Assembly (NCBI GenBank): GCA_019423685.1
Contig: JAHZAY010000005.1
Span: forward strand, 20,057-84,056
Direction of reading: 5' to 3'
DNA length: 64,000 bases
From: Clostridiales bacterium
Lineage (GTDB): Bacteria; Bacillota; Clostridia; Oscillospirales; Ruminococcaceae
The position numbers were made by a program, and so were the translations under genes. This document shows, piece after piece, positions 10,825-44,254 of the stretch; the first letter of the stretch is position 1; each line of letters starts with the position of its first letter. The notes beneath the pieces are model-generated. The model saw nothing but the letters and a program-made list of their open reading frames with translations. It was not told the origin of the DNA and did not search any database.

Positions 10825-10855
10825 TAAAAAACCTCCTTAAATAGATTATGGTTCC

Positions 10856-10884: not shown

Positions 10885-10987
10885 TTCTTTCTTTTTGAAT
10901 TCTTTCCTTTCTTTGTGTTATAAAAAAGGGGCTATCTTTGGGTACCACGCATCACGACAAAATTTTTTAAGCTGCCTTATGTGTCTT

Positions 10988-11025
10988 AAAAAAGAAAAGT
11001 CCCGAAAGGCGGTGCCTTTCGGGAC
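10988..11025 (-). terminator. intrinsic terminator ending the glutamate-fermentation operon
   Basis: On the minus strand the hairpin gtcccgaaagg ... cctttcgggac is followed by ttttctttttt, just downstream of the citF stop. Confidence 0.8.
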
Positions 11026-11037
11026 AAAAAGCAATCG

Positions 11038-13590: not shown

Positions 13591-13607
13591 GGTTGTTTTT
13601 CTCCTCT

Positions 13608-14144: not shown

Positions 14145-14224
14145 CCTGCTGATTCCTCCTTTGCGGCACCCCGACAACAAAGGCCGCCTTGCGCGGGCGG
14201 CCTTTTGCGCTCGGATGCTTTCTT

Positions 14225-15199: not shown

Positions 15200-15244
15200 G
15201 AAGCGCCTCCCCTCTTCCAAAATATCGATAACATAGTAAATATG

Positions 15245-15277
15245 CCGATAGGGATCCTGTGACAGAATCCCTATCGG
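15245..15277 (-). other. intercistronic 11-bp stem-loop between mal and the P-loop gene
   Basis: ccgatagggat (15245-15255) pairs perfectly with atccctatcgg (15267-15277). No U-tract follows on the sense (minus) strand. Confidence 0.5.
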
Positions 15278-15308
15278 TTATTTGTGTATGGCTAACCTGT
15301 CGGGTTAG

Positions 15309-16556: not shown

Positions 16557-16661
16557 GATAAAAATCTCCCTTCTATAAAGGCCCGCAGCCCTCTCCCCAC
16601 TGTGGGGGAGAAGGGAACTGCGCGCGCATTTTAATGCTTTTTCAAAATTATCCCAAAAAGG

Positions 16662-18134
16662 TTATCTCGGTCTGCCAACCAGACGGCCTTTGCTGATGGC
16701 ATAAACGTCGTCGATTACCATCTGGAAGGAAACGGCGCGGTTTTCTGCCTTAGCGCGCTCTTCGAGTTTCTCGCGATGGAACTTCTTCAGATCGTCGGTA
16801 AATGGCAGGTTGCCGATTTCCAGGATACGAACTGCACCGCCGTTGTCACGAGCTGGCAGCATGATGCCTGCATTGCACTTAGCTGGACCAAACGGTACGT
16901 CGATGACGCCCGCATGGATTGCAGCGATAGCGCCCAGAATGATGTCGCCATGACCCAATGCGATGACTTTGTCCATGATGCAACGGGTCTCCGCCTTGAT
17001 GATCTCCTTTTCGTGCTCCATACGGGAACCTACGGTTACCTGGTCAACCAGCATGTTGGTCAACTGTTTGGTGCAGCGCAGACCGGCGGCATTTGCTTCC
17101 TTGGTCGGTACACCAGCAGCCTCATGTGGTGTCTTAACGATAACCTTGGTCGCTTTTGCCAGGGTTGCGCAGGCAGCGCCCCAGGAGATAACGCCAAATG
17201 CTTTTGCTTCGTCAGCCGGGAAACCGCCCATCCACTGATGGAATACGGTGGTTACGTTGATGTCATAATAGCCGAACTTGTGCAGGTACTCTTCGGTCAG
17301 CTCTTCCAGAGTGCGGATTGCAGCGACGTCCTGAATCTGGTTGCCCAGTTGGCCGTAACCGACGGTGATGTTCTTAACGCCCTGCTCTGCAGCTGCCAGT
17401 GCTTCAATGATGGCAACCGAGTGGGAGATGCACGGAGGTACCAGAGTGCCGGTCAGCGGGCCGTATGGCTCACGGTTGATCGGAACGCCAGCTTCCTCAT
17501 AGATGCCGGTCAGGCGGTCTACATACTGCCAATCCTTCATGGTCTGCTCGATCGGAATATTCTTGGCGTATGGGATATTGTAGGAGATGCCGCCGCCCTC
17601 ATAGGAGGTGAAGCCGCCGGCATAGGTGATTTCGGTCAGGAGTCTGGCATCCGGAGTACCGTGACGGACCTGCAGCGGGGTGTCGAGCGCATCGACAACC
17701 TGACGGCAGCCGTGTACACCGTGGTTAACTGCCGGGAAGCCGTTGAGGAATGGGTGGAAATTGCCGCTTGCCATGCCTTCTTTTTCGCGGCGGATACCTT
17801 CAGCACAGTTCTCGTACTGATTCTGACGGGTATAGGAGTCGATGGTGGTTGGCAGCAGATCTGCTTCACCGGCATCCTGCAGGTGTTTGAGCAGTTCGAT
17901 GTGATTTTCGATCAGGCCCACGCCAGCTCTTGGCTGAATCAGGGTTACGCCCTCTTTTTTGGCCTTGTTGAGCTTGTGGGAGAAGATCTTATGTTCCGGC
18001 AGAGATTTGTGGTAGGCGATGGCTTCGTCCAGGTCTACCTCTTTGCCGGTCGGCCATGTGGCAAGGACTTCTTTACGCATTTTATAAAATTCGTCGTCGG
18101 TCCATTTTTTGTTTTTGATGTCAATGGTTTCCAT
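16662..18134 (-). CDS. glmE: glutamate mutase epsilon (large, catalytic) subunit
   Basis: [50 protein letters not shown] and [22 protein letters not shown] track the Clostridium GlmE/MutE sequence along its whole length. Confidence 0.95.
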
Positions 18135-18140
18135 CTACGT

Positions 18141-19532
18141 TTACTCCTTTACTAACTCCTTTTTCATAATTCTTAAAGCGGTATCGGGATATTCGGTGCT
18201 GAGCAGGCCCATTGCCGCCAAAATGTACTTGCGGTCGACATAGATGTCTGCGCTCTTTGGTTTCAGCGAGAACGGATCAACCGGATTAAACAGCGCATGT
18301 GCGGCAATCTGTGCGGTGCGTTTGGTGTGGATAATGGCGCCGCCGGTGACAACCACCGTCTTAACTCCCGTCAAATCCTTACCGGTCTGCATGTAGCTGA
18401 CACCCATTGGGGAATAATACTGCTCCAGATGTCCGGCGTGGCGGGTAACTGCAACCTCAATTGCAAGGGAAGCCAGTGCATAATCCAATGCCTCGAGCTC
18501 GCTGTCATCATCGCCCGGTACGACGTCGGTGTGTACGCCCAGATAGTCGATCAGCTCCTTGCAGCGGTCCTCACTCAATCCCGAAAGCTCCGAAACGCGC
18601 ATGATGTCGGTGGCGTCCACGATGCCATGAATGCTGTACCGCATGCCGATGTCGCCCTCAACGGTGCGCTTAGCATATTCTTCGCGCAATCCCTTGAGTG
18701 CCGTCATGCCCATAGTAGGCAAACCGAAGGACATCGAGTAGACGTCGGTGGTTGCGCCGCCAAGGTCCACTCCGACCAGATCTCCGATGCCGTCCTCGTT
18801 CTTACTGCCCTTTGCCAGCAGCTTCATGGCGGTCAGCATAGCCGATGGGGTCGGCATCAGGATACCTTGAATCAGGTCCTGTGCGCGGCTCAAGCCCTTA
18901 GCTTTGACAATCTGCTCAAGGAACAGCTCGCGGATCTTTTTCTGGACTGGCTCCACATTTGGAATATCCAGACGCGGCATGACGTTTTCACAGACATAGG
19001 TCTGTTTGTCTTTCAAGATTTCCTGGCACTTGTCGGAACAGTTGCGGTTTCCGGCAATGATGATGGGGAAATCATGTTTGGCCTTTGCCAACATCTGTGC
19101 GTTGAAGATGATATTTTCCTTGTTGCCTCCATCTGTGCCGCCGGTCAGCAGGCAGATATCGGGGTTAATCTTATCGATTTCCTCCAAATCCCCTTCGGTC
19201 AGCTCATAGGAATAGGTCTTGATGACCTTTGCGCCCGCACCAAGAGATGCCTGGCGGGCGGCTTTGGCAGTCAGTTCCGGTACAAGACCGATGGCCACCA
19301 TCCGCAGTCCTCCAGCTGCGCTGGAGCAAGCATACCGCTCAGAGAAGGAAATGTCGCCGATCTGTTCCTTTAAGATGGCCAGCGCATTGTTGAGGCCATC
19401 GTTGATGTCGGTTTCAATGGTGGTAAAACTCTGTGCGGTGCCCAGGATTTTTTCTTCGTCCACATCCACCGCAGTGATTTTGGTATATGTGCTGCCAAAA
19501 TCGATCAGCAAAACTGCCTTCATTGTCTTCAC
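18141..19532 (-). CDS. glmL: glutamate mutase-associated GlmL/MutL protein (ASKHA-fold putative reactivase/chaperone)
   Basis: It has LLIDFGSTYTK (phosphate-1 motif) and VGVDLGGATTD (ASKHA motif). It sits between glmS and glmE as in the clostridial mutS-mutL-mutE arrangement. Confidence 0.85.
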   Translation of the reverse strand: MKTMKAVLLIDFGSTYTKITAVDVDEEKILGTAQSFTTIETDINDGLNNALAILKEQIGDISFSERYACSSAAGGLRMVAIGLVPELTAKAARQASLGAGAKVIKTYSYELTEGDLEEIDKINPDICLLTGGTDGGNKENIIFNAQMLAKAKHDFPIIIAGNRNCSDKCQEILKDKQTYVCENVMPRLDIPNVEPVQKKIRELFLEQIVKAKGLSRAQDLIQGILMPTPSAMLTAMKLLAKGSKNEDGIGDLVGVDLGGATTDVYSMSFGLPTMGMTALKGLREEYAKRTVEGDIGMRYSIHGIVDATDIMRVSELSGLSEDRCKELIDYLGVHTDVVPGDDDSELEALDYALASLAIEVAVTRHAGHLEQYYSPMGVSYMQTGKDLTGVKTVVVTGGAIIHTKRTAQIAAHALFNPVDPFSLKPKSADIYVDRKYILAAMGLLSTEYPDTALRIMKKELVKE

Positions 19533-24544: not shown

Positions 24545-24680
24545 GTGTTCAGAACAAAAGAAAAGGACCTGATGGGACGAAGATCCCAGAGAGCTCCCAG
24601 TCGGGGGTTCCGGTTCAAAGAAACGATCCCCTTCCTTTGTTCATAGAACAGTGAACATAGATGAAATGGAGGAATGTTTT

Positions 24681-25130
24681 ATGTTACTGCCTAGCATCTT
24701 TGGTGAAAATTTGTTCGATGATTTTGATAACTTCAATTTTAATAGAGCGCTTAACCGCATGAACCACGAGCTGTACGGCAAACACAGCCACAACATGATG
24801 AAGGCCGATGTACGCGAGACCGAGAACAGCTACGAGCTGGATGTCGACCTGCCAGGCTTCAAGAAAGATGAGATTAAGGTAGAGTTGGACAACGGTTACC
24901 TGAATATCTCCGCTTCCAAGGGTCTGGACAAAGACGAGGAGAACAACAAAGGCGAGTACATCCGCCGCGAGCGCTATGCCGGTGCGATGAGCCGCAGCTT
25001 CTATGTCGGCGAGCAGTTGACCCAGCAGGATGTCAAAGCAAAATTTGAGGATGGCATCCTGAGAATCAGCATCCCGAAGAAGGAAGAACAGCAGCAGGTT
25101 GCACAGGATAAACACATTGCTATTGAATAG
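24681..25130 (+). CDS. Hsp20/alpha-crystallin family small heat-shock protein, copy 1
   Basis: The alpha-crystallin domain reads DVRETENSYELDVDLPGFKKDEIKVELDNGYLNISA ... FEDGILRISIPKK. GGAGGA lies 7 nt upstream of the ATG at 24681. Confidence 0.9.
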   Translation: MLLPSIFGENLFDDFDNFNFNRALNRMNHELYGKHSHNMMKADVRETENSYELDVDLPGFKKDEIKVELDNGYLNISASKGLDKDEENNKGEYIRRERYAGAMSRSFYVGEQLTQQDVKAKFEDGILRISIPKKEEQQQVAQDKHIAIE

Positions 25131-25201: not shown

Positions 25202-25648
25202 ATGTTACCAACCCTGTTTAGAGACAATCTTTTCGATGATATGTTTAACTTTGACGACTTTGACAAAGAGATGGACCGCATGATGAGACCGCTGTACGGC
25301 AAACATGCGCAGAACGTCATGAAGACCGATGTGCGTGAGACCGAGAACAGCTATGAGCTGGACATCGACCTGCCAGGCTTCAAGAAGGATGAGATCAAGG
25401 TAGAGCTGGACAACGGCTACCTGAGCATCTCCGCTTCCAAGGGTCTGGACAAGGACGAAGAGAACAACAAGGGCAAATATATCCGCCGCGAGCGCTATGC
25501 TGGCGCAATGAACCGTACCTTCTACGTCGGCAATCATCTGACCCAGCAGGATATCAAGGCAAAATTTGAGGACGGTATCCTGAAGATCAGCGTACCAAAG
25601 AAGGATGTTCAGCAGGTTGCTGCCAACAAGCACATCGCCATTGAATAG
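25202..25648 (+). CDS. Hsp20/alpha-crystallin family small heat-shock protein, copy 2 (tandem duplicate)
   Basis: The core is nearly identical to copy 1 at both protein and DNA level. It has the same GGAGGAATG-N-ATG translation start context, and no terminator lies between the copies. Confidence 0.9.
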   Translation: MLPTLFRDNLFDDMFNFDDFDKEMDRMMRPLYGKHAQNVMKTDVRETENSYELDIDLPGFKKDEIKVELDNGYLSISASKGLDKDEENNKGKYIRRERYAGAMNRTFYVGNHLTQQDIKAKFEDGILKISVPKKDVQQVAANKHIAIE

Positions 25649-25784: not shown

Positions 25785-26381
25785 TTACTCAGACAGGGTA
25801 AGCGCAAGCATCTGTGCCTGGTCGCCGCCGATCTGTTCTGGGTGATGGTAAAAATCAACGGGGATCGCCGCCTGCGTGTTGCTGCTCTCCTCATTGCCGA
25901 TCAGCAACAGCAGAGGAAGCGGCTCCCCCACAACGACCGTTTGCTCCTGCTGTGCAAAAGCTGAGGCCGCGTAAACGGCACCTTCTTTAAAGGAAATTTC
26001 CGGACACGCACTGGCAACAGACCCATCGTCTCCCTGCCAGGCGATGCGGCATTCTTTAGCTATTTCCCCGGAAAGGGCAAGCAGCAGCCTGCCAGAAATG
26101 GGCGTTGCATCGTCGTACTGCAGCCCAAAAAGGGTTCCTTCCTGCTTTTTCCACTCTCCTGCTTCCAGCGAGTAGAGGTTCACCTCCAACCTGGTGGTTT
26201 CTTGCGAGGAAAGGTGATAGACGACCGTGTCGTCTCCCGCTACAAGGTGCAAGATGCTCTCTTCCTCTTTTGAAAGCTGAGCCGGCACAAGGACATCCTG
26301 TGTGCCAGCACTCGCCTGGCACCCCGAAAAGACAAGACAACAGACAACAAGCAGCATAGACAAAAAGCACCTTCGGAGCAT
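25785..26381 (-). CDS. lipoprotein of unknown function (paralogue of 23006-23620)
   Basis: It has the lipobox LVFSGC. Collinear similarity to 23006-23620 includes LSKEEESILHLVAGD vs LTQAENDLLALVGEQ, LEAGEWK vs LEDGSWQ, ISGRLLLAL vs YSGRIAFTF and VVVGEPLPLLLLIG vs ITLNEPIALWVYYG. Confidence 0.7.
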   Translation of the reverse strand: MLRRCFLSMLLVVCCLVFSGCQASAGTQDVLVPAQLSKEEESILHLVAGDDTVVYHLSSQETTRLEVNLYSLEAGEWKKQEGTLFGLQYDDATPISGRLLLALSGEIAKECRIAWQGDDGSVASACPEISFKEGAVYAASAFAQQEQTVVVGEPLPLLLLIGNEESSNTQAAIPVDFYHHPEQIGGDQAQMLALTLSE

Positions 26382-26534: not shown

Positions 26535-27710
26535 TTATTTTGCTGCTGCCTGTGCTGCTTCTGCTGCCTCAACCTCTACCTTCTTCTGCTCATACAGCTT
26601 TGCAATCATCTCCAGCTTGTCTGGGATGGCAATCATCTGTGGGCACTTGGTGGTGCAGGACATGCAGCGGACACAGTGCTCCGCGCCATTGCCGTGTGCA
26701 ACGACCTCTTTGTAGTCATTGACAAAGGATTTCTCCTTGCCAAAAATCTTATAGCGGGAATAGATCGCAAAGATCTCCGGGATATCGACTCCCATCGGGC
26801 AATCCATGCAGTACCGGCAGCCGGTGCACGGAATCTCGTTTACCTTGCGGATTTCCTCAACTACCTTCGCAACAGCTTCCAGTTCCTTGTCGTTCATTGG
26901 CTCAAAGTTGGTCATGGTGGCGACGTTGTCGATCAGCTGCTGCTCATCGCTCATACCGCTGAGTACAACGGCAACCTGTGGCAGCGACTCAACCCAGCGG
27001 ATAGCCCAGCTGGCGATCGAGCGGTTTGGCTCCATATCCAGGAACGGTTTTGCGCGCTGTTCGTCGATGGTGGCAAGGTAACCGCCGCGTACCGGCTCCA
27101 TAACCATAACCGGCAGGTTGCGTTTTTCCAGCTCGCGGTAGAGCTGCTCTGCGCCCTGGTTCTGCCAATCCAGATAGTTCAGCTGAATCTGGACGAAATC
27201 CCAGTCATAATCGTTGAGAATTTGGGTGAATACCTGATAGGTGTCGTGGAAGGAGAAGCCCAGGTGTTTGATCTTGCCCTGACGCTTCATCTCCTGCAAG
27301 AACTCTACGCAATGCAGATCTTTGACCTTCTTGTAGTGGTTGCGGTTTAAGCTATGTACCAGATAAAAGTCGATGTAGTCGGTCTTGAGGGTTTTCAGCT
27401 GGTTTTCAAAGCGGCGCTTCATGTCCTCCTCATCCTCGCAGACCCAGATGCTCATCTTGTCTGCAATATAGAAGGTGCTGCGGTCGTAATTTTCAAACGC
27501 CTTTCCAAAAATCTTCTCGGATTCGCCCTTATGATAGACCATCGCGGTATCAAAATAGTTGATACCCATCTCGTACGCTTTGTGCAGCAAATCTACTGCC
27601 GCATCAAAATCTACTTCATCGCCGTTCTTTGGGAAGCGCATGCCCCCGTAACCCAGACGGGAGATCTCCAGTCCCAATGTTGGAATCATTCTGCGGTCGA
27701 TCATATTCAT
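26535..27710 (-). CDS. aldo/keto reductase with a C-terminal 4Fe-4S ferredoxin-type domain
   Basis: The AKR N-terminus reads LGLEISRLGYGGMRFP ... GINYFDTAMVY. The C-terminus carries CTGCRYCMDCP and CVRCMSCTTKCP cysteine clusters. The ATG at 27710 follows AAGGAGA. Confidence 0.85.
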   Translation of the reverse strand: MNMIDRRMIPTLGLEISRLGYGGMRFPKNGDEVDFDAAVDLLHKAYEMGINYFDTAMVYHKGESEKIFGKAFENYDRSTFYIADKMSIWVCEDEEDMKRRFENQLKTLKTDYIDFYLVHSLNRNHYKKVKDLHCVEFLQEMKRQGKIKHLGFSFHDTYQVFTQILNDYDWDFVQIQLNYLDWQNQGAEQLYRELEKRNLPVMVMEPVRGGYLATIDEQRAKPFLDMEPNRSIASWAIRWVESLPQVAVVLSGMSDEQQLIDNVATMTNFEPMNDKELEAVAKVVEEIRKVNEIPCTGCRYCMDCPMGVDIPEIFAIYSRYKIFGKEKSFVNDYKEVVAHGNGAEHCVRCMSCTTKCPQMIAIPDKLEMIAKLYEQKKVEVEAAEAAQAAAK

Positions 27711-27879
27711 TCTCTCCTTGCTTCTTAAGAGTGACTCCCGCCCCACAGGCAGGAATCCTGCACCTTTATCCTACCACAAAATCGCCTCCATGTAAAATGG
27801 CAGCTTCTCAAAAAGACAAAAGAATGTAAACATTCCTAAAATTTACACCCATTCCCACCTCCCTTGTGCACAGAAAAGA

Positions 27880-27908
27880 TTGACCTTTCCCGACAGGTGG
27901 TTTAAAAT
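27880..27908 (+). promoter_or_regulatory. putative sigma-A promoter of rpe
   Basis: TTGACC (27880-27885), 17 nt spacer, then TAAAAT (27903-27908). Confidence 0.5.
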
Positions 27909-27995
27909 AAAATGGAATTCATTTGCCTGTCGGGCAGCAGCTTGTTGCAGAGCCTCTCCCGACTCCATCGTCTTTGAAGAAAGGTCGTGCCCTTT

Positions 27996-28640
27996 ATGAT
28001 AAAAGTTTCCCCCTCCATCCTCTCCGCCGATTTTTCCTGCTTGGGTGAGCAGGCCCGCAAAATGCAGCAGGCGGGCGCACCCTGGCTGCACATCGACGTC
28101 ATGGACGGCCACTTTGTTCCCAACATCTCCTTCGGCGCACCGGTTATGAAGTGCATCCGCAAGGATTTTGACGGCGTATTCGACGTCCACCTGATGATCA
28201 GCGATCCGCTGCGCTATGCACAGGACTTCGCCAAGGCCGGCGCCGACATCATCACCTTCCATCTGGAATCGGACAGCGACCCGGACGCCACCATTGCGCA
28301 CATCCACGAGCTGGGCTGCAAAGCCGGCATCTCCATCAAACCTGGCACTCCCGCCGAGGCGGTCAAGCCCTATCTCGATCGCGTGGAGATGGTGCTGGTG
28401 ATGACCGTTGAACCGGGATTTGGCGGACAGAAATTTATGACCGATATGATGCCAAAGGTATCGGCGATCCGCCAATGGATCACCGATACCGGCCGCGAAA
28501 TCGACCTGCAGGTAGACGGCGGCGTCAACGCTGAAACGGCCAAAGTATGCAAACAGGCCGGGGCCAATGTACTGGTGGCCGGTTCCTACCTGTTCTCTAA
28601 AGAGGACTATGCTGCGGCCATCAAAACTTTGATCGACTAG
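27996..28640 (+). CDS. rpe: ribulose-phosphate 3-epimerase
   Basis: SPSILSADFSCLGEQ, LHIDVMDGHFVPNISFG, VMTVEPGFGGQKF and VDGG motifs are all present. Confidence 0.9.
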   Translation: MIKVSPSILSADFSCLGEQARKMQQAGAPWLHIDVMDGHFVPNISFGAPVMKCIRKDFDGVFDVHLMISDPLRYAQDFAKAGADIITFHLESDSDPDATIAHIHELGCKAGISIKPGTPAEAVKPYLDRVEMVLVMTVEPGFGGQKFMTDMMPKVSAIRQWITDTGREIDLQVDGGVNAETAKVCKQAGANVLVAGSYLFSKEDYAAAIKTLID

Positions 28641-28849: not shown

Positions 28850-29905
28850 ATGTCTCTGTTACAGTGGCTGACTACCGGCTCTTTTAACGGCATCTATCTT
28901 GAACAGATGAAGGAACCGGCCCTTTCTCGGCCCTTCCTGCATTTTTTCAGCAGTGCTACCATCCAGAGCAAACCGATCCACCACGGATATGACCTGTCCC
29001 ATCCGCTCAGCTGCGAGCAACTGGCCGATGTCGCCCGTCAGGCGGGCATCATCGACGAACACGACGGAAAGCCGCTGGCGGACAAGATCCTTCACGCTGC
29101 GCGGCAAAAAATTTCTGCGGTCTGCGTCGACGCCATCGACGACGAACCCTATGTCTCCAGCCAAATCAATCCCCTGCTGCATTGCAGCAGCCAGATTGTG
29201 CGCGCAGCCAATTGGATCAGCTCTGCATTGGATGTGAGCGAACGATTTATCGCAATCTATAAAAACATGTCTGCACTGGACACCAAAATTCCTTCCTTCA
29301 TCGACGGCGTAGAGGTGCGCCGGATGCAGGGACGTTACCCAATGGAAATCCGTGCTTTCCGAAGCTTTAAAAATGCGACCTTTATTGCAGGGGCCGCAAG
29401 CCTCCTGCACCTTTACCGCGCCGTCACCGAAGGACGCGCACAGACCACCTCGTTTGTCACCGTCGCGGGCAACTGCGTCGGCACGCCCCGCAACTACGAG
29501 GTCACCATCGGCACCCCTGTTTCGGTGCTGCTGGAGCGCTGCGGCCTCATTCAGTCGCCTTCGATTATTGTAGAGGGCGGCGCCATGCGCGGCATTGCGC
29601 TGGATGACCCGGACCACACCGCCATCCGTCCCAGCACTAGCTCCATTCTGGTCTTCCACGTCGACCGGCAGGAACAGCTGTACAGCTGCATCGGCTGCGG
29701 GCGCTGTATCGAAGCCTGCCCCTCCGGCCTCAACCCTCAGAAGCTTTACCGCTGTGTGACCACCAATCACAAACAGACCGCTCTGAGCCTTGGAATCCAA
29801 AACTGCATCGGCTGTGCCAGCTGCAGTTATATCTGCCCTTCCCGCCTGGACCTGGCACACAACATTGTTCAGGCAAAACTCCGGCTTTCCCCAGACCCGG
29901 AATAA
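28850..29905 (+). CDS. RnfC-like protein lacking the nucleotide/FMN-binding glycine-rich motifs (SLBB plus 2x[4Fe-4S] retained)
   Basis: The C-terminal CIGCGRCIEACP and CIGCASCSYICP ferredoxin motifs match the RnfC C-terminus. The region that aligns with the RnfC GxGGAGFP and INGAECEPY segments reads IIDEHDGKPLADKI and CVDAIDDEPY. It is about 90 aa shorter than canonical RnfC. Confidence 0.7.
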   Translation: MSLLQWLTTGSFNGIYLEQMKEPALSRPFLHFFSSATIQSKPIHHGYDLSHPLSCEQLADVARQAGIIDEHDGKPLADKILHAARQKISAVCVDAIDDEPYVSSQINPLLHCSSQIVRAANWISSALDVSERFIAIYKNMSALDTKIPSFIDGVEVRRMQGRYPMEIRAFRSFKNATFIAGAASLLHLYRAVTEGRAQTTSFVTVAGNCVGTPRNYEVTIGTPVSVLLERCGLIQSPSIIVEGGAMRGIALDDPDHTAIRPSTSSILVFHVDRQEQLYSCIGCGRCIEACPSGLNPQKLYRCVTTNHKQTALSLGIQNCIGCASCSYICPSRLDLAHNIVQAKLRLSPDPE

Positions 29906-29933
29906 AGTCCTTTCTAAAGGAGGTCCTTTACCC

Positions 29934-30911
29934 TTGTCTTCGACACGATACCACATGCCTTACATCCGGCACTCCGATGCCGCCCGCACCATCATGGGGG
30001 ACGTCATCATCGCGCTGGCGCCGCTGTACTTTATGGCATACTTCTACTATGGCTCCCGCGTGCTGCTGTTGGCTGCTGCCGCGATCCTCAGCTGTACCGT
30101 CTGCGACTGGCTGTGCAGCCTTATCCTCTATCGCCGGATCAATTCTCGCGATCTGAGCCCTGTTGTCACCGGCCTGATTCTGTGTGCACTGATGCCGCCC
30201 ACCATCTCCTTTTCGGTGGTCGTCTGGGCATCGGTGTTCTCTATTGTGATCTGCAAGGAGCCTTTTGGCGGAAGCGGTCACAACATCTTTAACCCCGCCG
30301 CTGCCGGTCTTGCCTTCGCCACCATCTGCTGGAGCGGTCAGATGTTCTCCTACACCCAGCCGCTGCAACGGCTGCCAATTGCAATCGACAATACTGTAAC
30401 TCTGATGCAGGGTCCGACAGCCACCTTAAAACTTGGCGGCATCCCCCGTCTGGAGCTGACAGAACTGCTGCTGGGCAACTTTGCCGGCCCAATCGCCTCA
30501 ACCTTCACGCTGATCATTGCCGCGTCGCTGCTCTATCTGCTGGCGCGCAACGTAGTCAAGTGGTACTCGGTTGTCTCCTTCGTGCTGCCGGTTGCGGTGC
30601 TTGCCGCCTTCAACCACCCTTATGGCGTCAGCTCACTGGAATCGATTACCAACGAGTTGTTCGTCGGCTCGCTGTGGTTTGTTGCGGTATTCATGCTCAG
30701 CGACCCGGTCACCTCCCCGAAATATCGTCTTTCCCGCATCTTATATAACCTTTGTGCCGGCATCATGGTCATGCTGTTCCGTTATTTCAGCCCTCTGGAG
30801 CTGAGCGCTGCCTTTGCGGTGCTGCTGATGAATGCGTTGGCACCAGTATTTGACATTGCCTGCGAACAGTTGATTATCCGCCAGAAGCAGAAAGGAGGCA
30901 GCGCATCATGA
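29934..30911 (+). CDS. RnfD/NqrB-family membrane protein (divergent)
   Basis: IMGDVIIALAPL, DLSPVVTGLILCALMPPT, KEPFGGSGHNIFNPAAAG, MLSDPVTSP and LLMNALAPVFD are collinear with RnfD. The TTG at 29934 lies 10 nt after AAAGGAGG; an alternative ATG is at 29955. Confidence 0.75.
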   Translation: MSSTRYHMPYIRHSDAARTIMGDVIIALAPLYFMAYFYYGSRVLLLAAAAILSCTVCDWLCSLILYRRINSRDLSPVVTGLILCALMPPTISFSVVVWASVFSIVICKEPFGGSGHNIFNPAAAGLAFATICWSGQMFSYTQPLQRLPIAIDNTVTLMQGPTATLKLGGIPRLELTELLLGNFAGPIASTFTLIIAASLLYLLARNVVKWYSVVSFVLPVAVLAAFNHPYGVSSLESITNELFVGSLWFVAVFMLSDPVTSPKYRLSRILYNLCAGIMVMLFRYFSPLELSAAFAVLLMNALAPVFDIACEQLIIRQKQKGGSAS

Positions 30912-31558
30912 CCTTTACCCGCAAGTACGAGCGAATCCTGCGCAAAACACGCGGTATCCTCTACAAAAATCCGCTGCTCTCTCTGGGGCTGGCAATGCCT
31001 TTGGCGATCATTCCGTCCTACAATCTCACCATCACTGCCGCCGTTTGTCTATCCATGCTGATCTGCTTTGTGCCGACGGTATTCATCGCCGGCATCATCG
31101 GCAAGCGGATTGTTTCCCCATGGCAGGTGGTTGTCTACCCGTTGATTGCCTGTGTGCTGATGATTCCAACCCGCATGCTGTTGCAGATGCTCTTTCCCAT
31201 GATTCAGGACACATTGGGCATCTATTTTTCGCTGATCTGTGTCAACACCCTGCTGTTTTATGCCACCGATCACGCCGCTCAAAAGCGTCCATTGCAGGCA
31301 TTGGGACTCGGTTTGCGGCTGTGGTTTGGCGCGGCGTTGGTTGCATTGATCTGCGGAGCAATCCGCGAGATTGCCGCCACCGGGGCAATTCTTGGCGTCG
31401 TCCTCTTCCCGAACGGTTCCCACATTCCCATTGCGCAGATGGCAATGGGCGGCTTTATTCTGTTGGCTTTCTTTGCGGCGCTGTGCCGCTTGATCCATCG
31501 CAGCATCCTATGGCTAACCAAGCGGGCGGATGCAAGCAAAGGGGGTGAACAGCGATGA
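30908..31558 (+). CDS. RnfE/NqrD-like membrane protein (divergent)
   Basis: LYKNPLLSLGLAMPLAI, GIYFSLICVNTLL and ICGAIREIAATG are collinear with RnfE motifs (NPVLVQLLGLCP, IPLIVVNC, GAIREILG). The start shares an ATGA overlap with the upstream gene. Confidence 0.65.
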   Translation: MTFTRKYERILRKTRGILYKNPLLSLGLAMPLAIIPSYNLTITAAVCLSMLICFVPTVFIAGIIGKRIVSPWQVVVYPLIACVLMIPTRMLLQMLFPMIQDTLGIYFSLICVNTLLFYATDHAAQKRPLQALGLGLRLWFGAALVALICGAIREIAATGAILGVVLFPNGSHIPIAQMAMGGFILLAFFAALCRLIHRSILWLTKRADASKGGEQR

Positions 31559-32154
31559 TGACCTATCTTGCAGAATTGTCGACAGCCTTTATGACTGCGT
31601 TGGCACTGGAAAATCTGCTGTTTGCCCGCGCCATCGACATTCCCCGCCTGTATGAGCGGCGATCCATTCAACAGATTGTCTACATCGGACTTACCCTTAC
31701 CGTCATCAACGCTGTTGGCGCGATACCTTCCTACTTTGTCAACCGCTTCTTAGGCTCCAAACCGCCGCTTTCTGACTTCATGACTCCGGCACAGCTTTGT
31801 GTCAACATTCTGGTCTTATTGGTAATTTATTTCCTCATCCGCCGTTTCTCGCCAAAACTGTTCAGTAGAATCGGGGAAAGTTTACCTTTTTATGGAGTCA
31901 ACTGCGTCACCTTGGGCACCCTGATGGTTGCATCGAGAATGAGCAGCAGCACAAACTTCTTTTTCTTCTTCGGTTACTGTGTGGGAGCAGGCGTTGGTTT
32001 TATGGTCGCACTTCTTTTGTTGTGGTCGGTTCGCCAGCGCCTTTCGATGACCCGCATTCCTAAAACATTCCGCGGCTTACCAATCACGTTGCTTTCTCTT
32101 GGCATCATTTCGCTTGCGCTGTTCGGCCTGCTGGGCAACCAGCTGCCGGCATAA
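31555..32154 (+). CDS. RnfA/NqrE-like membrane protein (divergent)
   Basis: LPFYGVNCVTLG and RIPKTFRGLPITLLSLGIISLALFGL parallel the RnfA motifs LPLITTNCAVLG and [25 protein letters not shown]. The start shares an ATGA overlap with the upstream gene. Confidence 0.7.
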   Translation: MMTYLAELSTAFMTALALENLLFARAIDIPRLYERRSIQQIVYIGLTLTVINAVGAIPSYFVNRFLGSKPPLSDFMTPAQLCVNILVLLVIYFLIRRFSPKLFSRIGESLPFYGVNCVTLGTLMVASRMSSSTNFFFFFGYCVGAGVGFMVALLLLWSVRQRLSMTRIPKTFRGLPITLLSLGIISLALFGLLGNQLPA

Positions 32155-32178
32155 AGTGCGCGCTCGGGAGGGATTATT

Positions 32179-33381
32179 ATGGGAAGACCTTACAAGATCA
32201 AACGTCACAAACAGATTTACCGCCGCTCGACGGGCAGTGTGGTGCTGCGCGTTTTGGTGATTGTGGTGGCCATCGCCGCCCTGTTTGCCCTTGGATGGGC
32301 ACTGTACGCCCCGGTCAGCAACTGGATCGCCCAGCGGCAAAACCAAACTCCTCAGCAGACAATCGGTTCTTCCGACGAACAACAGTCGCAGGAAGAGATG
32401 GTGCCCGGCGCATCGCAGACCGAGGAAGATCTGCCCCAAGCGGAGGAACAGCCTGTTTCCTCGACTTCCGCTATGACCGCCTACCTGCCGCCTGAAACGG
32501 TGCAGGACAGTGCCGCCTTCTCCTCTGCCTTAACCGCGGCAAAGGATGCCGGCTACGACAGCATCCTGATCGACCTGAAAACCGATGACGGCACAGTCAC
32601 CTACTCCATCCAGTACAACGAAACTACCGATGCGCGCGTCACCACCACGACGCCGATCGATCTTGCCTCCACAGTCCAGCAAATTCGCGACGCGGGCCTT
32701 ATGCCAGTGGCCTCGATCCACACCTTCCGCGATCACCTGTATCCGTCCGTCGATCACGATGCAGCTACCTGGTACCTTGATTCCAGCTCGCTGTGGCTGG
32801 ACAATTCTCCAGACAACGGCGGTCGCGTTTGGATGAATCCCTTCTCGGACGCTGCACAAAACTACATCCAGAAGATTGTGGACGACGCCTGCAACGCCGG
32901 ATTTGAAGAAATTATCCTGCAAGATGTACAATTCCCTGAGGGCTACTCGCTGGATATGATCGACTACTTCGAACATGCCGGGGATGACAAACACGCCTTC
33001 TTGCAGCAGTACATTGCGCAGATGACCGAATACGCTGCGGGCAAAGGGGTGGAGCTGACAGCCCTGTTCCCCGCCACCAGCATGCTGGGTGGGGAGAGCG
33101 ACATGTACTTCGGCGACACGACCGACCTTGTCTCGGGCACCGTGGCAATCGATCTGCGGGACAGCGTCTTTGGTACCGGACTGCAAAATGACCAGATTTC
33201 CATCCCCGATCCGGGAGCAGACCCCTACAACACGGTGCGCACCGCCGCCGCAGCACTGCGCGAAAAGCTGCCGAACACCCAAATCATCGCTCTGCTCGAC
33301 GCCGACGGCGTTGCCGAGCGCACCGAGGCGGCCGCACAGAGCGACATTGTGCGCTACATCGTCTACTCTCCGACCTTCTAA
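32179..33381 (+). CDS. membrane-anchored putative glycoside hydrolase-like protein (DUF4015/GHL-type TIM-barrel)
   Basis: It has an N-terminal TM helix (VVLRVLVIVVAIAALFALGWALYAPV), then a Q/E/S-rich linker. Next comes a domain with ILIDLKTDDGTVTY ... HTFRDH ... WMNPF ... GFEEIILQDVQFPEG, resembling the DUF4015 pattern (ViDvKdd.G ... FkD ... WvnP ... GFDEIqfDYvRFP). The gene starts 24 nt after the RnfA-like gene. Confidence 0.55.
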   Translation: MGRPYKIKRHKQIYRRSTGSVVLRVLVIVVAIAALFALGWALYAPVSNWIAQRQNQTPQQTIGSSDEQQSQEEMVPGASQTEEDLPQAEEQPVSSTSAMTAYLPPETVQDSAAFSSALTAAKDAGYDSILIDLKTDDGTVTYSIQYNETTDARVTTTTPIDLASTVQQIRDAGLMPVASIHTFRDHLYPSVDHDAATWYLDSSSLWLDNSPDNGGRVWMNPFSDAAQNYIQKIVDDACNAGFEEIILQDVQFPEGYSLDMIDYFEHAGDDKHAFLQQYIAQMTEYAAGKGVELTALFPATSMLGGESDMYFGDTTDLVSGTVAIDLRDSVFGTGLQNDQISIPDPGADPYNTVRTAAAALREKLPNTQIIALLDADGVAERTEAAAQSDIVRYIVYSPTF

Positions 33382-33819: not shown

Positions 33820-34269
33820 TTATTGGGCGCTCTCCTGTTTCTCCAACAGGCTGTGGTAGCGTTCGAGCATCTGTCCCAAGGTGATCCGCTGCATCTGCTG
33901 TTGCACCGCTTTTGCAATCTCCTCATAGGGCTCGCGCAGCACTTCGGCAATATTGCGCCCTACCGGACACAGCGGCGAAGGGGCCGGGTGCAGCCCGATC
34001 AACCGTTCAAGACCCTGTGGCTCCAGCGCGTGATAAACCTCCCACAGCGTCACCTGATCGGGAGAAACCGCCATCGTCGCGCCGCCGACACCGCGGGCAA
34101 TGTGAATAATTCCCGCCTTTTGCAGCGCACCCAGAAGGCTGCGGATGGCAGCCGGATTGCAGCCGGTTGTTTTGGAAAGCAATTCGCTGGTGACCCGAAC
34201 CTGCTGGCCATATTCGGCAATAAAGATTAAACAGTGCATCGCGATAGAACTTTTTGTACTGATTTTCAT
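33820..34269 (-). CDS. Rrf2 family transcriptional regulator
   Basis: MKISTKSSIAMHCLIFIA ... TSELLSKTTGCNPAAIRSLLGALQKAGII is the Rrf2 HTH. The ATG at 34269 follows GAGGGA by 6 nt. Confidence 0.85.
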   Translation of the reverse strand: MKISTKSSIAMHCLIFIAEYGQQVRVTSELLSKTTGCNPAAIRSLLGALQKAGIIHIARGVGGATMAVSPDQVTLWEVYHALEPQGLERLIGLHPAPSPLCPVGRNIAEVLREPYEEIAKAVQQQMQRITLGQMLERYHSLLEKQESAQ

Positions 34270-34419
34270 TTTCAATCCCTCTATACAAATAAACCTTGTC
34301 TTTATTATACGGTATTTACACCGGATTGTAAACGAAAATTGTTTGCCCCCACCGGTCTTGTTCGTACCCTCTAAAGAATACCCTCTGTTCCAATGCTGTG
34401 TTTTGGGATATACAGCAAC

Positions 34420-34446
34420 AAAAGCCGCCCCGGTGGGGCGGCTTTT
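34420..34446 (-). terminator. intrinsic terminator of perR-rbr
   Basis: Hairpin aaaagccgcccc / ggggcggctttt, with a T-run on the minus strand just after the rbr stop. Confidence 0.8.
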
Positions 34447-34471
34447 GTTTTATTTTGTCTTTTAAACCAGA

Positions 34472-35008
34472 TTAATAGTTCTGTGCTCTGAGCTCGAAGT
34501 ATGCCTTTGGATGTGCGCATACCGGGCAAACTTCCGGCGCTTCCTCGCCGAAGTGGATATGTCCGCAGTTGCGGCAGATCCAAGCCTTTTTGCCTTCGCG
34601 GTTGAATACTTTGCCTTCCTCGATGTTCTTGCACAGAGCTTTGTAGCGCTCCTCGTGCTCTTTCTCGATGGCAGCTACGCCCTCGAAGAGGTTTGCAATG
34701 TGATCGAAGCCCTCTTCTCTTGCCTCTTTTGCGAAGGTAGCATACATATCGGTCCACTCATAGTTCTCGCCGGCAGCTGCATCTTTGAGGTTGTCTACGG
34801 TCTTGCCGATGCCGCCGTTGAGGAGCTTAAACCACATTTTTGCGTGCTCTTTTTCGTTGTTGGCAGTCTCGGTAAAGATCGCAGAGATCTGCTCAAAGCC
34901 CTCTTTTTTAGCCTGGGAAGCGTAGTAAGTGTACTTGTTTCTTGCCTGGGATTCTCCTGCAAATGCAGCCTGCAAATTTTTCTCAGTCTTTGTTCCTTTG
35001 AGTTCCAT
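34472..35008 (-). CDS. rbr: rubrerythrin
   Basis: The ferritin-like diiron motifs are ESQARNKY and NEKEHAKMW. The C-terminus has a rubredoxin-like CRNCG ... CPVC. Confidence 0.9.
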
Positions 35009-35040
35009 AGTGATAGTTCCGCCTTTCTTTGTAAAATCGT

Positions 35041-35445
35041 TTATTTAGACTCTTCTTTCTGGCAGCTTCGACAGATACCCCAGGCCCGAATCTGGACCTC
35101 CTGTACCTGTGCGCCGACCTGTGCAAACGTGGCTTTCAGCGACTCCGTCTCCCTCCCAACATCGCACGGCAGGTCAAATACTCCGCCGCACTGGGTACAG
35201 ATCAGATGTGGGTGCATGGTGGTCACCGCGTCAAAGCGATCTCCGCCAATGCCGGTATGGATGCGCCGCAGCAGCCCCATCTCCTCCAGAATGTTTAGAT
35301 TCCGGTAAACCGTCCCCAGGCTGATCTCGGGAAGCTGTTCTTTTACTGTGAGGTAAACTTCCTCCGCGTTTGGGTGCTCATGAGAGGCCTTCACCGCGTC
35401 ATACACAAGCGTCCGCTGACGTGAATTTCTTCTTTGTTCCGCCAT
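35041..35445 (-). CDS. perR: Fur family repressor, probably PerR
   Basis: The Fur-family HTH reads [11 protein letters not shown] ... HPNAEEVY ... [19 protein letters not shown], with CxxC ... CxxC pairs (CTQCG, CRSC). It is co-transcribed with rbr, as in clostridial perR-rbr units. Confidence 0.75.
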
Positions 35446-35688: not shown

Positions 35689-35717
35689 TTGACAGCATGC
35701 ACACTCTTCGATATAAT
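35689..35717 (+). promoter_or_regulatory. sigma-A promoter of rplJ-rplL
   Basis: Consensus TTGACA (35689-35694), 17 nt spacer, then TATAAT (35712-35717). Confidence 0.75.
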
Positions 35718-35987
35718 AATAAAGCTGTCAATTCCAAAGACAGCAGGTGCAAATGCAAAACAGCATTGCTTAAAGCAAGCCTGCCGAGGAAATGATGAGA
35801 AAGTATTATGACTTTTCATCTGCTCTTTTGCCTCGGAGCGTCATGCTTTGAGGAAAAAGGGCTTTTTTAATTTTTCGGGTGATCCGAAAAAGCAACCCTT
35901 TTTCGGAGCGGCGATTTGCATCGAATCCGCGCCGCGGCCTCCCCCAAAAAGGACCGCGCACAAACATTTTTCAGGAGGTGAACTGAT
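35718..35987 (+). ncRNA. rplJ 5' leader (probable L10(L12)4 autoregulatory leader)
   Basis: A structured untranslated region of about 270 nt lies between a consensus promoter and rplJ. It has several hairpins and U-rich tracts, for example gccgagg ... cctcggag and gggctttttt. The position is as expected for the Firmicute L10 leader. The motif itself was not verified by a covariance model. Confidence 0.45.
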
Positions 35988-42349: not shown

Positions 42350-42724
42350 TTATTCTCGTTTTTTGCGATCCAATTGACCTGCTATTTGCACCGGCACAAT
42401 CAGAATTGCCGCGATGGCAGCGACAGAGAAGAGGATAAATAAGAAAACGGCAAAATACAAATCCACTTTTGCAAAAAACAAAACAGCGGATAAAATGACG
42501 CTGATAGCCGAAAAAACGGCACATAAAAACCCGGCCGCATTGTTGCCATACTCCCATTTTTGCTGACTTGCCATTATTTTTTTATGATGATACCCTACCC
42601 TACAATCGGGAAATTTTGTGCGTTTCTTTCTCAAAACAAATGCTAAAATTCCTAAAATCAGAGCCAATACAAGATAAAGCAATTCCACCAAAATCATTTG
42701 TCCCCACAATCTCCCTTCTGTCAT
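42350..42724 (-). CDS. SdpI/YhfL-like small membrane protein
   Basis: Four predicted TM segments. The motif RVGYHHKKIMASQQKWEY resembles the SdpI-family IGYRT ... S ... W loop. Confidence 0.5.
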   Translation of the reverse strand: MTEGRLWGQMILVELLYLVLALILGILAFVLRKKRTKFPDCRVGYHHKKIMASQQKWEYGNNAAGFLCAVFSAISVILSAVLFFAKVDLYFAVFLFILFSVAAIAAILIVPVQIAGQLDRKKRE

Positions 42725-42787
42725 TCATCCTTATTTTCCGTCTACCTTTTTTCACCGGTTTATCCCTCAGCAAAGTGCCCAGCCATC

Positions 42788-44005
42788 TTAAGCTTTTTTA
42801 GTGAAATCATCTTCTATTCGCACCACCGGCTCGGTGTAGTCCAACCCGCCCGGGAAGATCTGTTGTGTGAATGTGCTGTAGTACCGGTCTGTACAGGCAG
42901 CTTCCAACTCAGCGCAGTCGTGTGCATTTGCAGAAGTTTTGGACAAGGTTTTGAGACTCACCGATACCGGCAGCGAGGCTGTGCGCTTCATTGTGGAAAG
43001 AATCTCCCTTCCCCGCCCATTCATTGCGAGCACCCGCAGATAGGGTGGCGGGAGTTTGTGCGCCTGCCCCGGTATCTGCAAAAAGGCCGCCAACACCAGC
43101 CGCCGCACCCGAGAAAGCGGATAGCGCTTGGTCTTTATCAGGCTGTACAGCTCGTCGAGCGAACAAGCTCTCTGCGACGCCGCATACAGGCGGTTTTCGA
43201 TCCCCTCCGAAACATCCGGCAAAAGGGCAAGCTCCTCCCGATGCATTTGGCGCAAGGCAGAGAGGACGGCGCGCTCACCGTTTTTCATCTTGGCAAGTTT
43301 GCCCATTTGGGTCGCCTGTTGAAAGCGTGCAGCAGCCTTTTTGGGCAGATAAGGCTCTGCCTGTTCCCATCTGCCCTGATACAACAGTTCCCGCAGAAAG
43401 CTTGCCGAGGCATACCCCTCAACCGGTGCACCGTCATGGGCGTTGCCCACCCGCTCCAGCGCCACCGGTTCGACCGTCGCGGCAAGCTGCTCAAGCTGGG
43501 TCAGATACTCCACCGCGAGGATGTTGTTGGGACTTTGCAGCACCGATGCGACCGCATCGCCGCAGACCTGTCGCACCGCCTCTTCTCTTGCGGCGGCAAA
43601 GGTGATACCCTTTGCCAGTTCCGATTGCAATTGCCCACGCACAGCATCCTCCTGCAAGGCGCCTGCCGCTTGACGCAGCAGGGCAACATCGGCATCCTCT
43701 GCGCCAAAACCCAGCCAGTCCACACAGCCCATCGCCTGTACAAGATGAACCGCTCCAAAGGCAAACCCTTGCGCTCCTGCACAGGCATAAGCTGTCGGCA
43801 GCTCCACCACAAGATCTGCGCCCGCATCCAGTGCGGCAGCAGCCCGCACCCGCTTTGGAAAGATGGCCGGCGTGCCCCGCTGGGTAAAATTCGGGCTCAT
43901 CACCACAACAAGGTGACTGGCGCCCCGCTCGCGCAGCTTTTGCAGCTGCCAGAGATGCCCTTTGTGAAAGGGATTATATTCCGCAATGACGGCGGCGATC
44001 TTCAT
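42788..44005 (-). CDS. tmcAL: tRNA(Met) cytidine acetate ligase (YlbM/UPF0348 nucleotidyltransferase)
   Basis: IAEYNPFHKGHLWQL is the HxGH nucleotidyltransferase motif, and VVVMSPNFTQRG ... DLVVELP matches the YlbM/TmcAL family. Confidence 0.8.
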   Translation of the reverse strand: MKIAAVIAEYNPFHKGHLWQLQKLRERGASHLVVVMSPNFTQRGTPAIFPKRVRAAAALDAGADLVVELPTAYACAGAQGFAFGAVHLVQAMGCVDWLGFGAEDADVALLRQAAGALQEDAVRGQLQSELAKGITFAAAREEAVRQVCGDAVASVLQSPNNILAVEYLTQLEQLAATVEPVALERVGNAHDGAPVEGYASASFLRELLYQGRWEQAEPYLPKKAAARFQQATQMGKLAKMKNGERAVLSALRQMHREELALLPDVSEGIENRLYAASQRACSLDELYSLIKTKRYPLSRVRRLVLAAFLQIPGQAHKLPPPYLRVLAMNGRGREILSTMKRTASLPVSVSLKTLSKTSANAHDCAELEAACTDRYYSTFTQQIFPGGLDYTEPVVRIEDDFTKKA

Positions 44006-44254
44006 GTTCCAGCCTCCTATTTTTCGGTGAATTGTTTGTTCGTCTTAACCGCTCTATGCGCTTATTGGAGCTTAATTTTGGCTTACTTTTCGGGAAAATT
44101 GGCGATTTTTTACCTCTTTTGCCAAAATATTAGCTCCCCTCTCTTGAAAAGTTTCTTCAAATATAATAATATAGTAAGTGTAAAGGAGTGTCAATCTGCC
44201 TCTTCACCGCTTTTTTGTGCGGCGAGGCTTTAAAAAATTATGGAGGAATTTGAT

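Follow-up and report, generated by a model that had tools for sequence, protein, structure and literature searches.

A 64,000-nucleotide stretch of the genome of a Clostridiales bacterium of the Ruminococcaceae (GenBank assembly GCA_019423685.1, contig JAHZAY010000005.1, positions 20,057 to 84,056 of the forward strand; hereafter the window) carries a genuine, conserved derivative of the Rnf complex that has been depleted of its cofactors and has apparently gone undescribed. Four homologues of RnfC, RnfD, RnfE and RnfA, which we call C', D', E' and A', follow the pentose-phosphate gene rpe and precede a gene for a DUF4015 protein. The block has neither RnfG nor RnfB, it recurs in at least 19 species-level genomes (hereafter the orphan loci), and it has lost most of the residues that hold the redox cofactors of Rnf.

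An earlier reading of this DNA from its letters and open reading frames (ORFs; hereafter the sequence-only reading) had assigned the four proteins to the Rnf/Nqr families, and Pfam, NCBIfam, PDB and fold matches agree on this homology. Pfam places NQR2_RnfD_RnfE (PF03116) on D' at 246 bits as its sole domain, Rnf-Nqr on E' and A' at 74 and 82 bits, and SLBB and 4Fe-4S dicluster domains on C'; Complex1_51K stays below threshold in C' (20.5 bits, cut-off 31.2) and RnfC_N is absent. The best PDB sequence matches are RnfC chains for C' (8ahx_C and 7zc6_C) and the RnfD chain 7zc6_D for D', with NqrB reaching only 59 bits. Structural searches with an AlphaFold2 (AF2) model of C' (predicted local distance difference test score (pLDDT) of 77.5) returned RnfC chains first and NqrA second, and E' and A' keep the full-length six-helix folds of RnfA and RnfE. 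All four proteins fall short of the curated NCBIfam rnf cut-offs, with C' scoring 157 bits against TIGR01945 (cut-off 246), D' 174 bits against TIGR01946 (207), E' 36 bits against TIGR01948 (213) and A' 78 bits against TIGR01943 (229), and no curated NCBIfam model covers the family.

The missing subunits are not hidden nearby. The sequence-only reading had seen no room for RnfG between D' and E' and no RnfB after A', and both points hold: the six-subunit gene set is incomplete, D' and E' overlap by 4 nucleotides, and the DUF4015 gene occupies the place of rnfB. We built hidden Markov models (HMMs) from 34 RnfG and 30 RnfB canonical sequences taken from the ordinary rnf operons of the genome scan described below. 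In the 64-kb window and the 19 orphan loci, the RnfG model found nothing and the RnfB model touched only the ferredoxin motif of C'. RnfG and RnfB are also absent within around 7 kb of related loci, and the window contains no match to FMN_bind. Fusion of RnfG or RnfB into C', D', E' or A', named in the sequence-only reading as incompatible with its proposal, was ruled out because Pfam and the custom HMMs were negative; an FMN_bind or RnfB-type iron–sulfur (Fe–S) domain occurs in none of the five proteins encoded from C' to DUF4015.

To compare cofactor sites, ligand columns were read according to the structure paper on the Clostridium tetanomorphum complex by Vitt et al. 2022 (PMC9588780), the source of the ligand residue identities, and a 2025 review (PMC12174285); the column counts rest on MAFFT alignments of stop-to-stop ORFs. 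RnfD carries covalent flavin mononucleotide (FMN) on a conserved threonine, Thr153 in C. tetanomorphum, within the motif (S/T)(G/S)AT (PMC9588780; PMC12174285). The full flavinylation motif, D-x-x-(S/T)-(G/S)-A-T-P-L, occurs in almost every one of the 58 canonical RnfD sequences but in none of the 19 orphans, and D' of the window reads QGPTA, with glycine in the threonine column. Glu185 (57/58 canonical versus 0/19 orphan sequences) and Arg130 (55/58 versus 0/19) have likewise gone, and Gly237 is lost in the orphans. What D' retains are the scaffold motifs GGxGxNxFNPA and (D/E)PxTSP, including the equivalent of Asp248, a residue implicated in binding riboflavin and Na+ (PMC9588780). At the membrane [2Fe-2S] site, in RnfE, the first cysteine is present in 42/42 canonical sequences versus 5/18 orphans and the second in 41/42 versus 0/18; in RnfA, the first is present in 49/51 versus 0/19 and the second in 50/51 versus 11/19, and no orphan has more than two of the four. 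Cys117 of A', the second RnfA cysteine, is the sole survivor in the window, where the other positions hold Pro/Met, Thr and Pro and both cysteines of E' are substituted.

In C', the site that binds FMN and the reduced form (NADH) of nicotinamide adenine dinucleotide (NAD+) has been exchanged for other motifs. The RnfC motif GxGGxxFP has become (I/V)DExDGxPL in the orphans (IIDEHDGKPL in the window), NxxECEPY(L/I)T has become DAIDDEPYxSSQ (VDAIDDEPYVSSQ in the window) and IEDNK has become (A/V)YKN, and across the family these replacements vary little or not at all. Both [4Fe-4S] motifs of C', CIGCGRCIEACP and CIGCASCSYICP, are present in the window, and their eight cysteines are found in 19/19 orphans and 61/61 canonical sequences. 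Judged from these residues, the module cannot run the semicircular electron transfer of Rnf from ferredoxin to NAD+: the path from ferredoxin through RnfB, [2Fe-2S], FMN in RnfG, FMN in RnfD, riboflavin, the Fe–S clusters of RnfC and FMN in RnfC to NAD+ would be impossible because RnfG, RnfB and the cofactor sites are missing. This bears out the earlier view that the module is not the textbook ferredoxin:NAD+ enzyme, and extends it, as that view had rested on the two absent subunits and the losses now include the FMN-threonine, the [2Fe-2S] cysteines and the FMN/NADH motifs of RnfC. Among seven listed Rnf-defining features, five are lacking and one, the [4Fe-4S] clusters of RnfC, is present; the module should therefore not be annotated as an Rnf complex, though it is plainly Rnf-derived.

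The residues that survive raise the question of whether a shortened redox wire remains, in which a cytoplasmic donor would feed the [4Fe-4S] clusters of C', then a non-covalent riboflavin in D' and finally an acceptor, or in which RnfG and RnfB would be borrowed from elsewhere in the genome. We regard this as improbable. The invariance of the eight cysteines of C' and the retained D' scaffold with its Asp248 equivalent speak for it, as does the organism's fermentation of glutamate by the methylaspartate pathway, for which the window holds a gene set; this fermentation yields reduced ferredoxin. Borrowed RnfG and RnfB would, however, find no partner cofactors, with the FMN-threonine, Glu185 and Arg130 of RnfD and three of the four RnfA/E cysteines gone; the NADH/FMN pocket of C' has been swapped for a different conserved motif; and E' and A' are under selection although a wire from C' to D' would not need them.

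The module is widespread. A protein search with C' returned 361 related clusters, and the best 120 are all around 350 amino acids (aa) long and 40–99% identical, with named relatives in Oscillospiraceae, Hydrogenoanaerobacterium, Provencibacterium and Negativibacillus. When 1.84 billion representatives clustered at 50% identity were searched with a profile, the best 150 matches were sorted by regular expressions for the two sets of motifs: 106 carried the orphan motifs, 43 fitted neither expression and one, ranked last, was canonical; none of these 150 reaches the curated rnfC cut-off. The family thus accounts for at least 106 of these 150, and probably for around 149, and comprises at least around 100 clusters at 50% identity, probably around 150. 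A scan of one genome per species, with loci classified by ORF-level BLAST, gave at least 80 loci. At least 19 of the species-level genomes, a lower bound, carry the block without RnfG and RnfB at 27–66% identity (L001–L016, L027, L029 and L052, from Oscillospiraceae and other Clostridia); the closest among the loci listed is Negativibacillus massiliensis, with a C' identity of 66%. The remaining loci of the scan are ordinary rnfCDGEAB or rnfABCDGE operons. Further metagenome contigs, L081, L083 and L085 among them, have the orphan arrangement as well.

All five genes from C' to DUF4015 are under purifying selection, with a ratio of non-synonymous to synonymous substitution rates (dN/dS) of 0.13–0.22 for each in the comparison of the window with metagenomic locus L081 (69–81% amino-acid identity). 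The sequence-only reading had allowed that the arrangement might be a one-off deletion of a canonical operon, with close relatives still carrying RnfG and RnfB. Relatives at 27–66% identity instead keep the G-less, B-less block at the same locus, and a one-off deletion is therefore ruled out by the 19 syntenic loci together with dN/dS. Nor do we find it credible that the block is what is left, without function, of a duplicated and decaying rnf operon, or an artefact of assembly or deletion confined to this one genome. Such a remnant would account for the loss of many cofactor ligands and for scores well under the curated Rnf cut-offs in all four proteins, but the reading frames are intact and translationally coupled, dN/dS is low, the motifs DExDGxPL, DAIDDEPYxSSQ and LEQxKEPALSR are invariant and specific to the family, and the same architecture stands in at least 19 species-level genomes and several independent metagenome contigs; together these essentially refute it. 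New conserved motifs combined with low dN/dS therefore indicate altered function, not decay, and the neofunctionalised, Rnf-derived membrane machine that the earlier reading had envisaged is supported: all three of the refuting conditions set for it turned out in its favour.

Two subgroups can be told apart, and they are possibly an evolutionary series. The core group (the window, L001–L013, L081–L083 and L085) has a C' of around 350 aa without RnfC_N but with a conserved N-terminal motif, G-I-x-L-E-Q-x-K-E-P-A-L-S-R, and its operons always end with the DUF4015 gene. In the second group (L014–L016, L027, L029 and L052) C' is 405–450 aa long with a weak match to RnfC_N, E' keeps its first cysteine (GLCP), and DUF4015 is usually lacking, with A' followed by an Amidohydro_2 gene, by a malic enzyme gene or by nothing conserved. 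The Amidohydro_2-family gene lies directly 3' of A', in the DUF4015 slot, in L014 (10163-11002) and L016 (10201-11055). Many C' homologues (P0234-P0249, for example) reach 560-980 aa owing to a C-terminal extension of 200–600 aa; in L005, C' (6770-9532) has around 500 aa rich in Gln, Ala and Glu after the ferredoxin domain, probably a coiled coil.

The locus is a predicted six-gene operon, rpe-C'-D'-E'-A'-DUF4015 (Table 1). The sequence-only reading had drawn the unit from C' to the end of the DUF4015 gene (28850-33381); the five packed genes stand, but the upstream limit does not, as the unit opens at rpe (27987). Its ATGA overlaps at the D'/E' and E'/A' junctions are both present (30908-30911 and 31555-31558), each with a Shine–Dalgarno-like site ahead of it. 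For D', TTG at 29934 is the best start candidate, ten bases downstream of AAAGGAGG, and the homologous TTG was also picked by the gene caller in the relative L081 (72% identical). No promoter-like site was found by the consensus scan in the 209-nucleotide spacer between rpe and C', and the candidate ahead of rpe is likely the operon promoter. The hairpin behind the DUF4015 gene, with a folding energy of −25.1 kcal/mol and a z-score of −6.3 (0/200 shuffles fold equally well), is the probable transcription terminator of the operon; a simple terminator scan made no call there because the U-tail is weak (CCUUAUAU).

Table 1 Features of the rpe-C'-D'-E'-A'-DUF4015 locus, in window coordinates
Feature	Position	Strand	Basis
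Sigma-70-like promoter candidate (TTGACC, 17 nt, TAAAAT)	27880..27908	+	Consensus scan, 10/12 matches; consensus match only
rpe, ribulose-phosphate 3-epimerase	27987..28640	+	Pfam Ribul_P_3_epim, 246 bits; TIGR01163
C', RnfC-like cytoplasmic subunit, 351 aa	28850..29905	+	TIGR01945, PDB sequence matches, AF2 model
D', RnfD-like polytopic membrane subunit, 325 aa	29934..30911	+	Pfam NQR2_RnfD_RnfE
E', RnfE-like membrane subunit, 216 aa	30908..31558	+	Pfam Rnf-Nqr; alignment to 7zc6_E
A', RnfA-like membrane subunit, 199 aa	31555..32154	+	Pfam Rnf-Nqr; alignment to 7zc6_A
DUF4015 protein, 400 aa	32179..33381	+	Pfam DUF4015; AF2 model
Strong hairpin, probable operon terminator, 34 nt past the stop codon	33415..33448	+	Folding energy

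The conserved block starts at rpe, and no feature of the family is more constant than this link: in 19/19 orphan genome loci and in L083, rpe is the gene immediately upstream of C' and often abuts it, which makes its linkage to the module tighter than that of DUF4015. Beyond rpe we found no conserved neighbourhood, as the upstream gene differs in every locus examined (RNase Y, HflX, a patatin, a CAAX protease, a sortase, TsaB, RibF-HAD or an aldo-keto reductase). In the window, an aldo/keto reductase with a C-terminal 4Fe-4S dicluster domain is divergent from rpe (26535-27746, minus strand), and the same type of reductase neighbours rpe in L001, L004 and L015.

This linkage invites the view that the redox engine was discarded and that the module is an Rnf-derived channel or transporter for ions or solutes, tied to pentose-phosphate metabolism, which we consider distinctly improbable. 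On this view the D' fold, which is related to urea and ammonium transporters, and an inverted E'/A' dimer would move an ion or small molecule in whose metabolism Rpe takes part, and the ectoprotein might release the substrate outside. RnfD and NqrB resemble solute transporters, and the RnfA/E dimer of inverted topology alternates between inward- and outward-facing states (PMC12174285); D' keeps the scaffold motifs that line the channel, and rpe stays linked in the 19 loci and L083 while the flanks vary. On the other hand, the block has no kinase, isomerase or binding protein and nothing in it points to a substrate; Rpe of the window scores as an ordinary housekeeping equivalog (TIGR01163, 279.3 bits versus a cut-off of 212.6), so that rpe may provide no more than a constitutive promoter; and simple transport would leave the conserved Fe–S subunit unexplained.

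The fifth protein of the block belongs to DUF4015 (PF13200, a putative glycosyl-hydrolase TIM barrel), at 90.2 bits versus a gathering cut-off of 27. Its AF2 model (pLDDT 84) has a helix at residues 18–54, a disordered stretch at 56–95 and a beta/alpha barrel at 98–396, giving a layout of a basic cytoplasmic tail (PYKIKRHKQIYRR in the window), one membrane helix, a low-complexity acidic linker rich in Gln and Pro, and an extracytoplasmic TIM barrel. The membrane-anchored, glycoside-hydrolase-like gene placed after A' by the sequence-only reading is thus recovered by the Pfam match, the N-terminal helix and the barrel model, and the ORF map gives the same 24-nucleotide gap after A'. A Foldseek search ranked 4S1A, a hypothetical protein of R. 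thermocellum, first and the functional region of C. difficile Cwp19 (5oq3) next (E = 7e-11, TM-score 0.52–0.57, identity around 11–13%), with further matches to GH20-like proteins, TM1410/GH191 and the hydrolase domain of PelA. Cwp19, the nearest characterised protein among these fold matches, is a peptidoglycan lytic transglycosylase. Across 17 orthologues, K134, G138, D185, W206, D208, GG214-215, W218, N220, P221, Y229 and F252-P253 are invariant or nearly so, putative active-site residues among them. Even where overall identity is down to 27–30%, the tail, (Y/F)K(I/V)KR(Y/H)xxxY, and the membrane helix, LFxxGWxLYxPV, stay conserved, which speaks for a specific partner at the membrane and its cytoplasmic face.

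From its genomic placement, the DUF4015 protein looks coupled to the Rnf-like module. Its gene lies 3' of A' in the window, in 15/19 genome loci (including L001–L013 and L052) and in L081, L083 and L085, and every homologue retrieved with the DUF4015 protein sits straight after a D'-E'-A' module. The C'-D'-E'-A'-DUF4015 pattern therefore recurs in Clostridia, as the earlier reading had suggested might be surveyed, but DUF4015 is not exclusive to the orphan module: in three other Clostridia it is the seventh gene, after rnfB, of a canonical rnfCDGEAB operon (L025, 10905-12014; L039, 11690-12766; L086, 7107-8228). These proteins are more distant, but they too begin with a basic tail and have a single membrane helix. 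Ectoprotein and Rnf were therefore linked before RnfG and RnfB were lost, or independently of that loss. In the L039 operon, which is otherwise canonical in its cofactor motifs, the gene in the RnfG position (8907-9659) has no FMN_bind match in Pfam and stops before the usual SGAT motif; it may be an intermediate stage or a problem of ORF calling or assembly.

Our overall picture is of a cofactor-depleted Rnf derivative that serves as a membrane platform controlling an ectoprotein. We give this picture an even chance of being right, and hold each of its single steps with less confidence than the whole. The Rnf architecture would be kept as the platform, with C' sitting on D' at the cytoplasmic face, beside an inverted dimer of E' and A'. 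The DUF4015 protein, which has the same topology as RnfG (N-terminal helix, linker, globular domain outside), may use its conserved membrane helix and its basic cytoplasmic tail to dock to the platform. A conserved acidic pocket appears to have replaced the FMN pocket of C', and C' might sense or pass on a signal from the cytoplasm (redox state or a ligand, for example) through its Fe–S clusters and the acidic pocket, or possibly bind the basic tail. Such input would position or control a putative enzyme that cleaves cell-wall glycans. Sharing a transcript with rpe, a housekeeping gene, suggests that expression is constitutive and tied to growth.

A more specific version, in which the Rnf scaffold has become a new trans-membrane device for control or energising that moves no electrons across the membrane, seems to us unlikely as it stands. 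Here C' would read redox or metabolic state, or the core of D' and E'/A' would use ion flow, and either signal would shift the conformation of a single-pass glycan hydrolase anchored outside in the manner of TonB or RnfG. If true, the device would let central metabolism, to which the co-transcribed rpe belongs, bear on how abundant Clostridia of the gut remodel their cell walls.

Several observations weigh against the platform picture. The universal linkage to rpe is left unexplained by a role at the cell wall. The link to DUF4015 is missing in most of the second subgroup (L014–L016, L027 and L029), and therefore the ectoprotein cannot account for the whole family. These two points are the chief weaknesses of the picture. 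TM-scores to Cwp19 are only 0.52–0.57, and Glu254 of the ectodomain, in the motif 'FPEGY', is not conserved, so that catalysis is putative. The invariant [4Fe-4S] ligands of C', together with Asp/Glu at RnfD position 248, leave room for residual electron transfer.

The window holds several further features around the operon. The methylaspartate glutamate-fermentation genes lie at 7820-19532 on the minus strand and encode MutE, MutL, methylaspartate ammonia-lyase, CitF (the alpha subunit of citrate/citramalate lyase), citrate lyase ligase and a CitX-CitG fusion; C. tetanomorphum classically pairs this pathway with a canonical Rnf complex. Just downstream of the operon on the opposite strand (33820-35445, minus) are an Rrf2-family regulator, rubrerythrin and a Fur/PerR-like regulator. 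L081 has these three neighbours too, and L001 has rubrerythrin; they may reflect a context of oxidative stress or iron, or close relatives may share this synteny by coincidence. Two tandem, highly similar ORFs on the plus strand (24651-25130 and 25202-25648) resemble Hsp20/alpha-crystallin proteins by eye from their translations. A ribosomal protein L10 leader (RF00557, 61 bits) at 35716-35877 on the plus strand, ahead of an apparent rplJ-rplL pair (by translation), is the only structured RNA found by an Rfam scan of the whole window. Three ORFs, at 42698-44233 (plus strand, 511 aa), 14225-15220 (minus, 331 aa) and 25785-26381 (minus, 198 aa), have no Pfam match at E ≤ 1e-6.

A full-text literature search gave no account of the C-D-E-A module or of its links to rpe and DUF4015, which is not proof for all literature. 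It found one paper that mentions DUF4015, in which the domain is fused to YkyA domains (supplementary figure). A connection to sporulation was considered and set aside: the sole literature match on RnfC and engulfment concerns an RnfC_N-like barrel in SpoIIQ and is irrelevant here, and the promoter-consensus scan, not systematic for sporulation sigma factors, gave a sigma-70-like site ahead of rpe. Databases label members of the family RnfC/D/E/A, 'SLBB domain-containing' or '4Fe-4S binding protein', and metabolic reconstructions of gut Oscillospiraceae will wrongly credit their hosts with an extra, or their only, energy-conserving Rnf complex. The finding also bears on how the superfamily is viewed. 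The cofactors of the Rnf/Nqr membrane core have been described as strictly conserved (PMC12174285), and Rnf/Nqr is treated as a closed family of redox pumps; here a large branch under selection has dropped those cofactors and two subunits while keeping four proteins, a natural experiment on what the Rnf scaffold does without its redox chemistry. That DUF4015 recurs alongside rnf operons of both kinds, orphan and canonical, suggests that Rnf and the cell envelope are connected in a way not recognised so far.

Comparison with known systems sets the module apart from each of them. In common with Rnf (RnfCDGEAB; 7ZC6, 8AHX and 9ERI), it has four homologous subunits whose genes run in the same order, both RnfC [4Fe-4S] motifs, the RnfD scaffold motifs and the RnfA/E folds. 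It differs in lacking RnfG, RnfB, the FMN-threonine of RnfD, the four-cysteine [2Fe-2S] site and the FMN/NADH motifs of RnfC, in being always preceded by rpe and usually followed by DUF4015, and, in the core group, in a C' without RnfC_N.

In the Na+-translocating NADH:quinone oxidoreductase (Na+-NQR), cofactor loss has a precedent in NqrA, a homologue of RnfC whose redox cofactors have been lost but which is still an integral subunit (PMC12174285); the C' model matches NqrA after RnfC. Na+-NQR is nevertheless a working redox pump with NqrC (the RnfG homologue), NqrF, covalent FMNs and a membrane [2Fe-2S] cluster, whereas the losses of the module strike the membrane core and its RnfC-like subunit keeps the Fe–S clusters. 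None of the NQR features (NqrF with its flavin adenine dinucleotide (FAD), [2Fe-2S] and NADH sites, NqrC, and the N-terminal quinone-site helices of NqrB) is found in the module. Partial NQR/RNF-like gene sets have been described in Actinobacteria and the candidate phyla radiation (CPR) by Meheust et al. 2021, who proposed a function different from that of the full pump (PMC8238504). Both are partial Rnf/Nqr-derived sets; those clusters combine a fusion of RnfD/NqrB with the NAD-binding domain of NqrF (PF00175) with neighbouring ApbE or FMN-binding genes, work with flavinylated proteins, and were proposed to carry electrons outward (PMC8238504). Assignment of our module to this type was rejected, as it has no such fusion, no flavinylation motif, no FMN_bind and no ApbE neighbour.

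For the ectoprotein, the nearest likeness is to Cwp19, TM1410 and PelA, with which its TIM barrel aligns, DUF4015 having a conserved W-x-N-P motif and conserved Asp residues; the DUF4015 protein differs in having no cell-wall-binding repeats and in being held by an N-terminal membrane helix with a conserved cytoplasmic tail, and any enzymatic activity it has is a prediction. For the arrangement as a whole, FtsEX may offer a parallel: descended from a transporter but no longer transporting, this membrane complex acts from the cytoplasmic side to control a cell-wall hydrolase outside the membrane. The parallel would be one of function only, not of homology, with FtsEX driven by ATP and the Rnf-derived module equipped with an Fe–S subunit at the cytoplasmic face.

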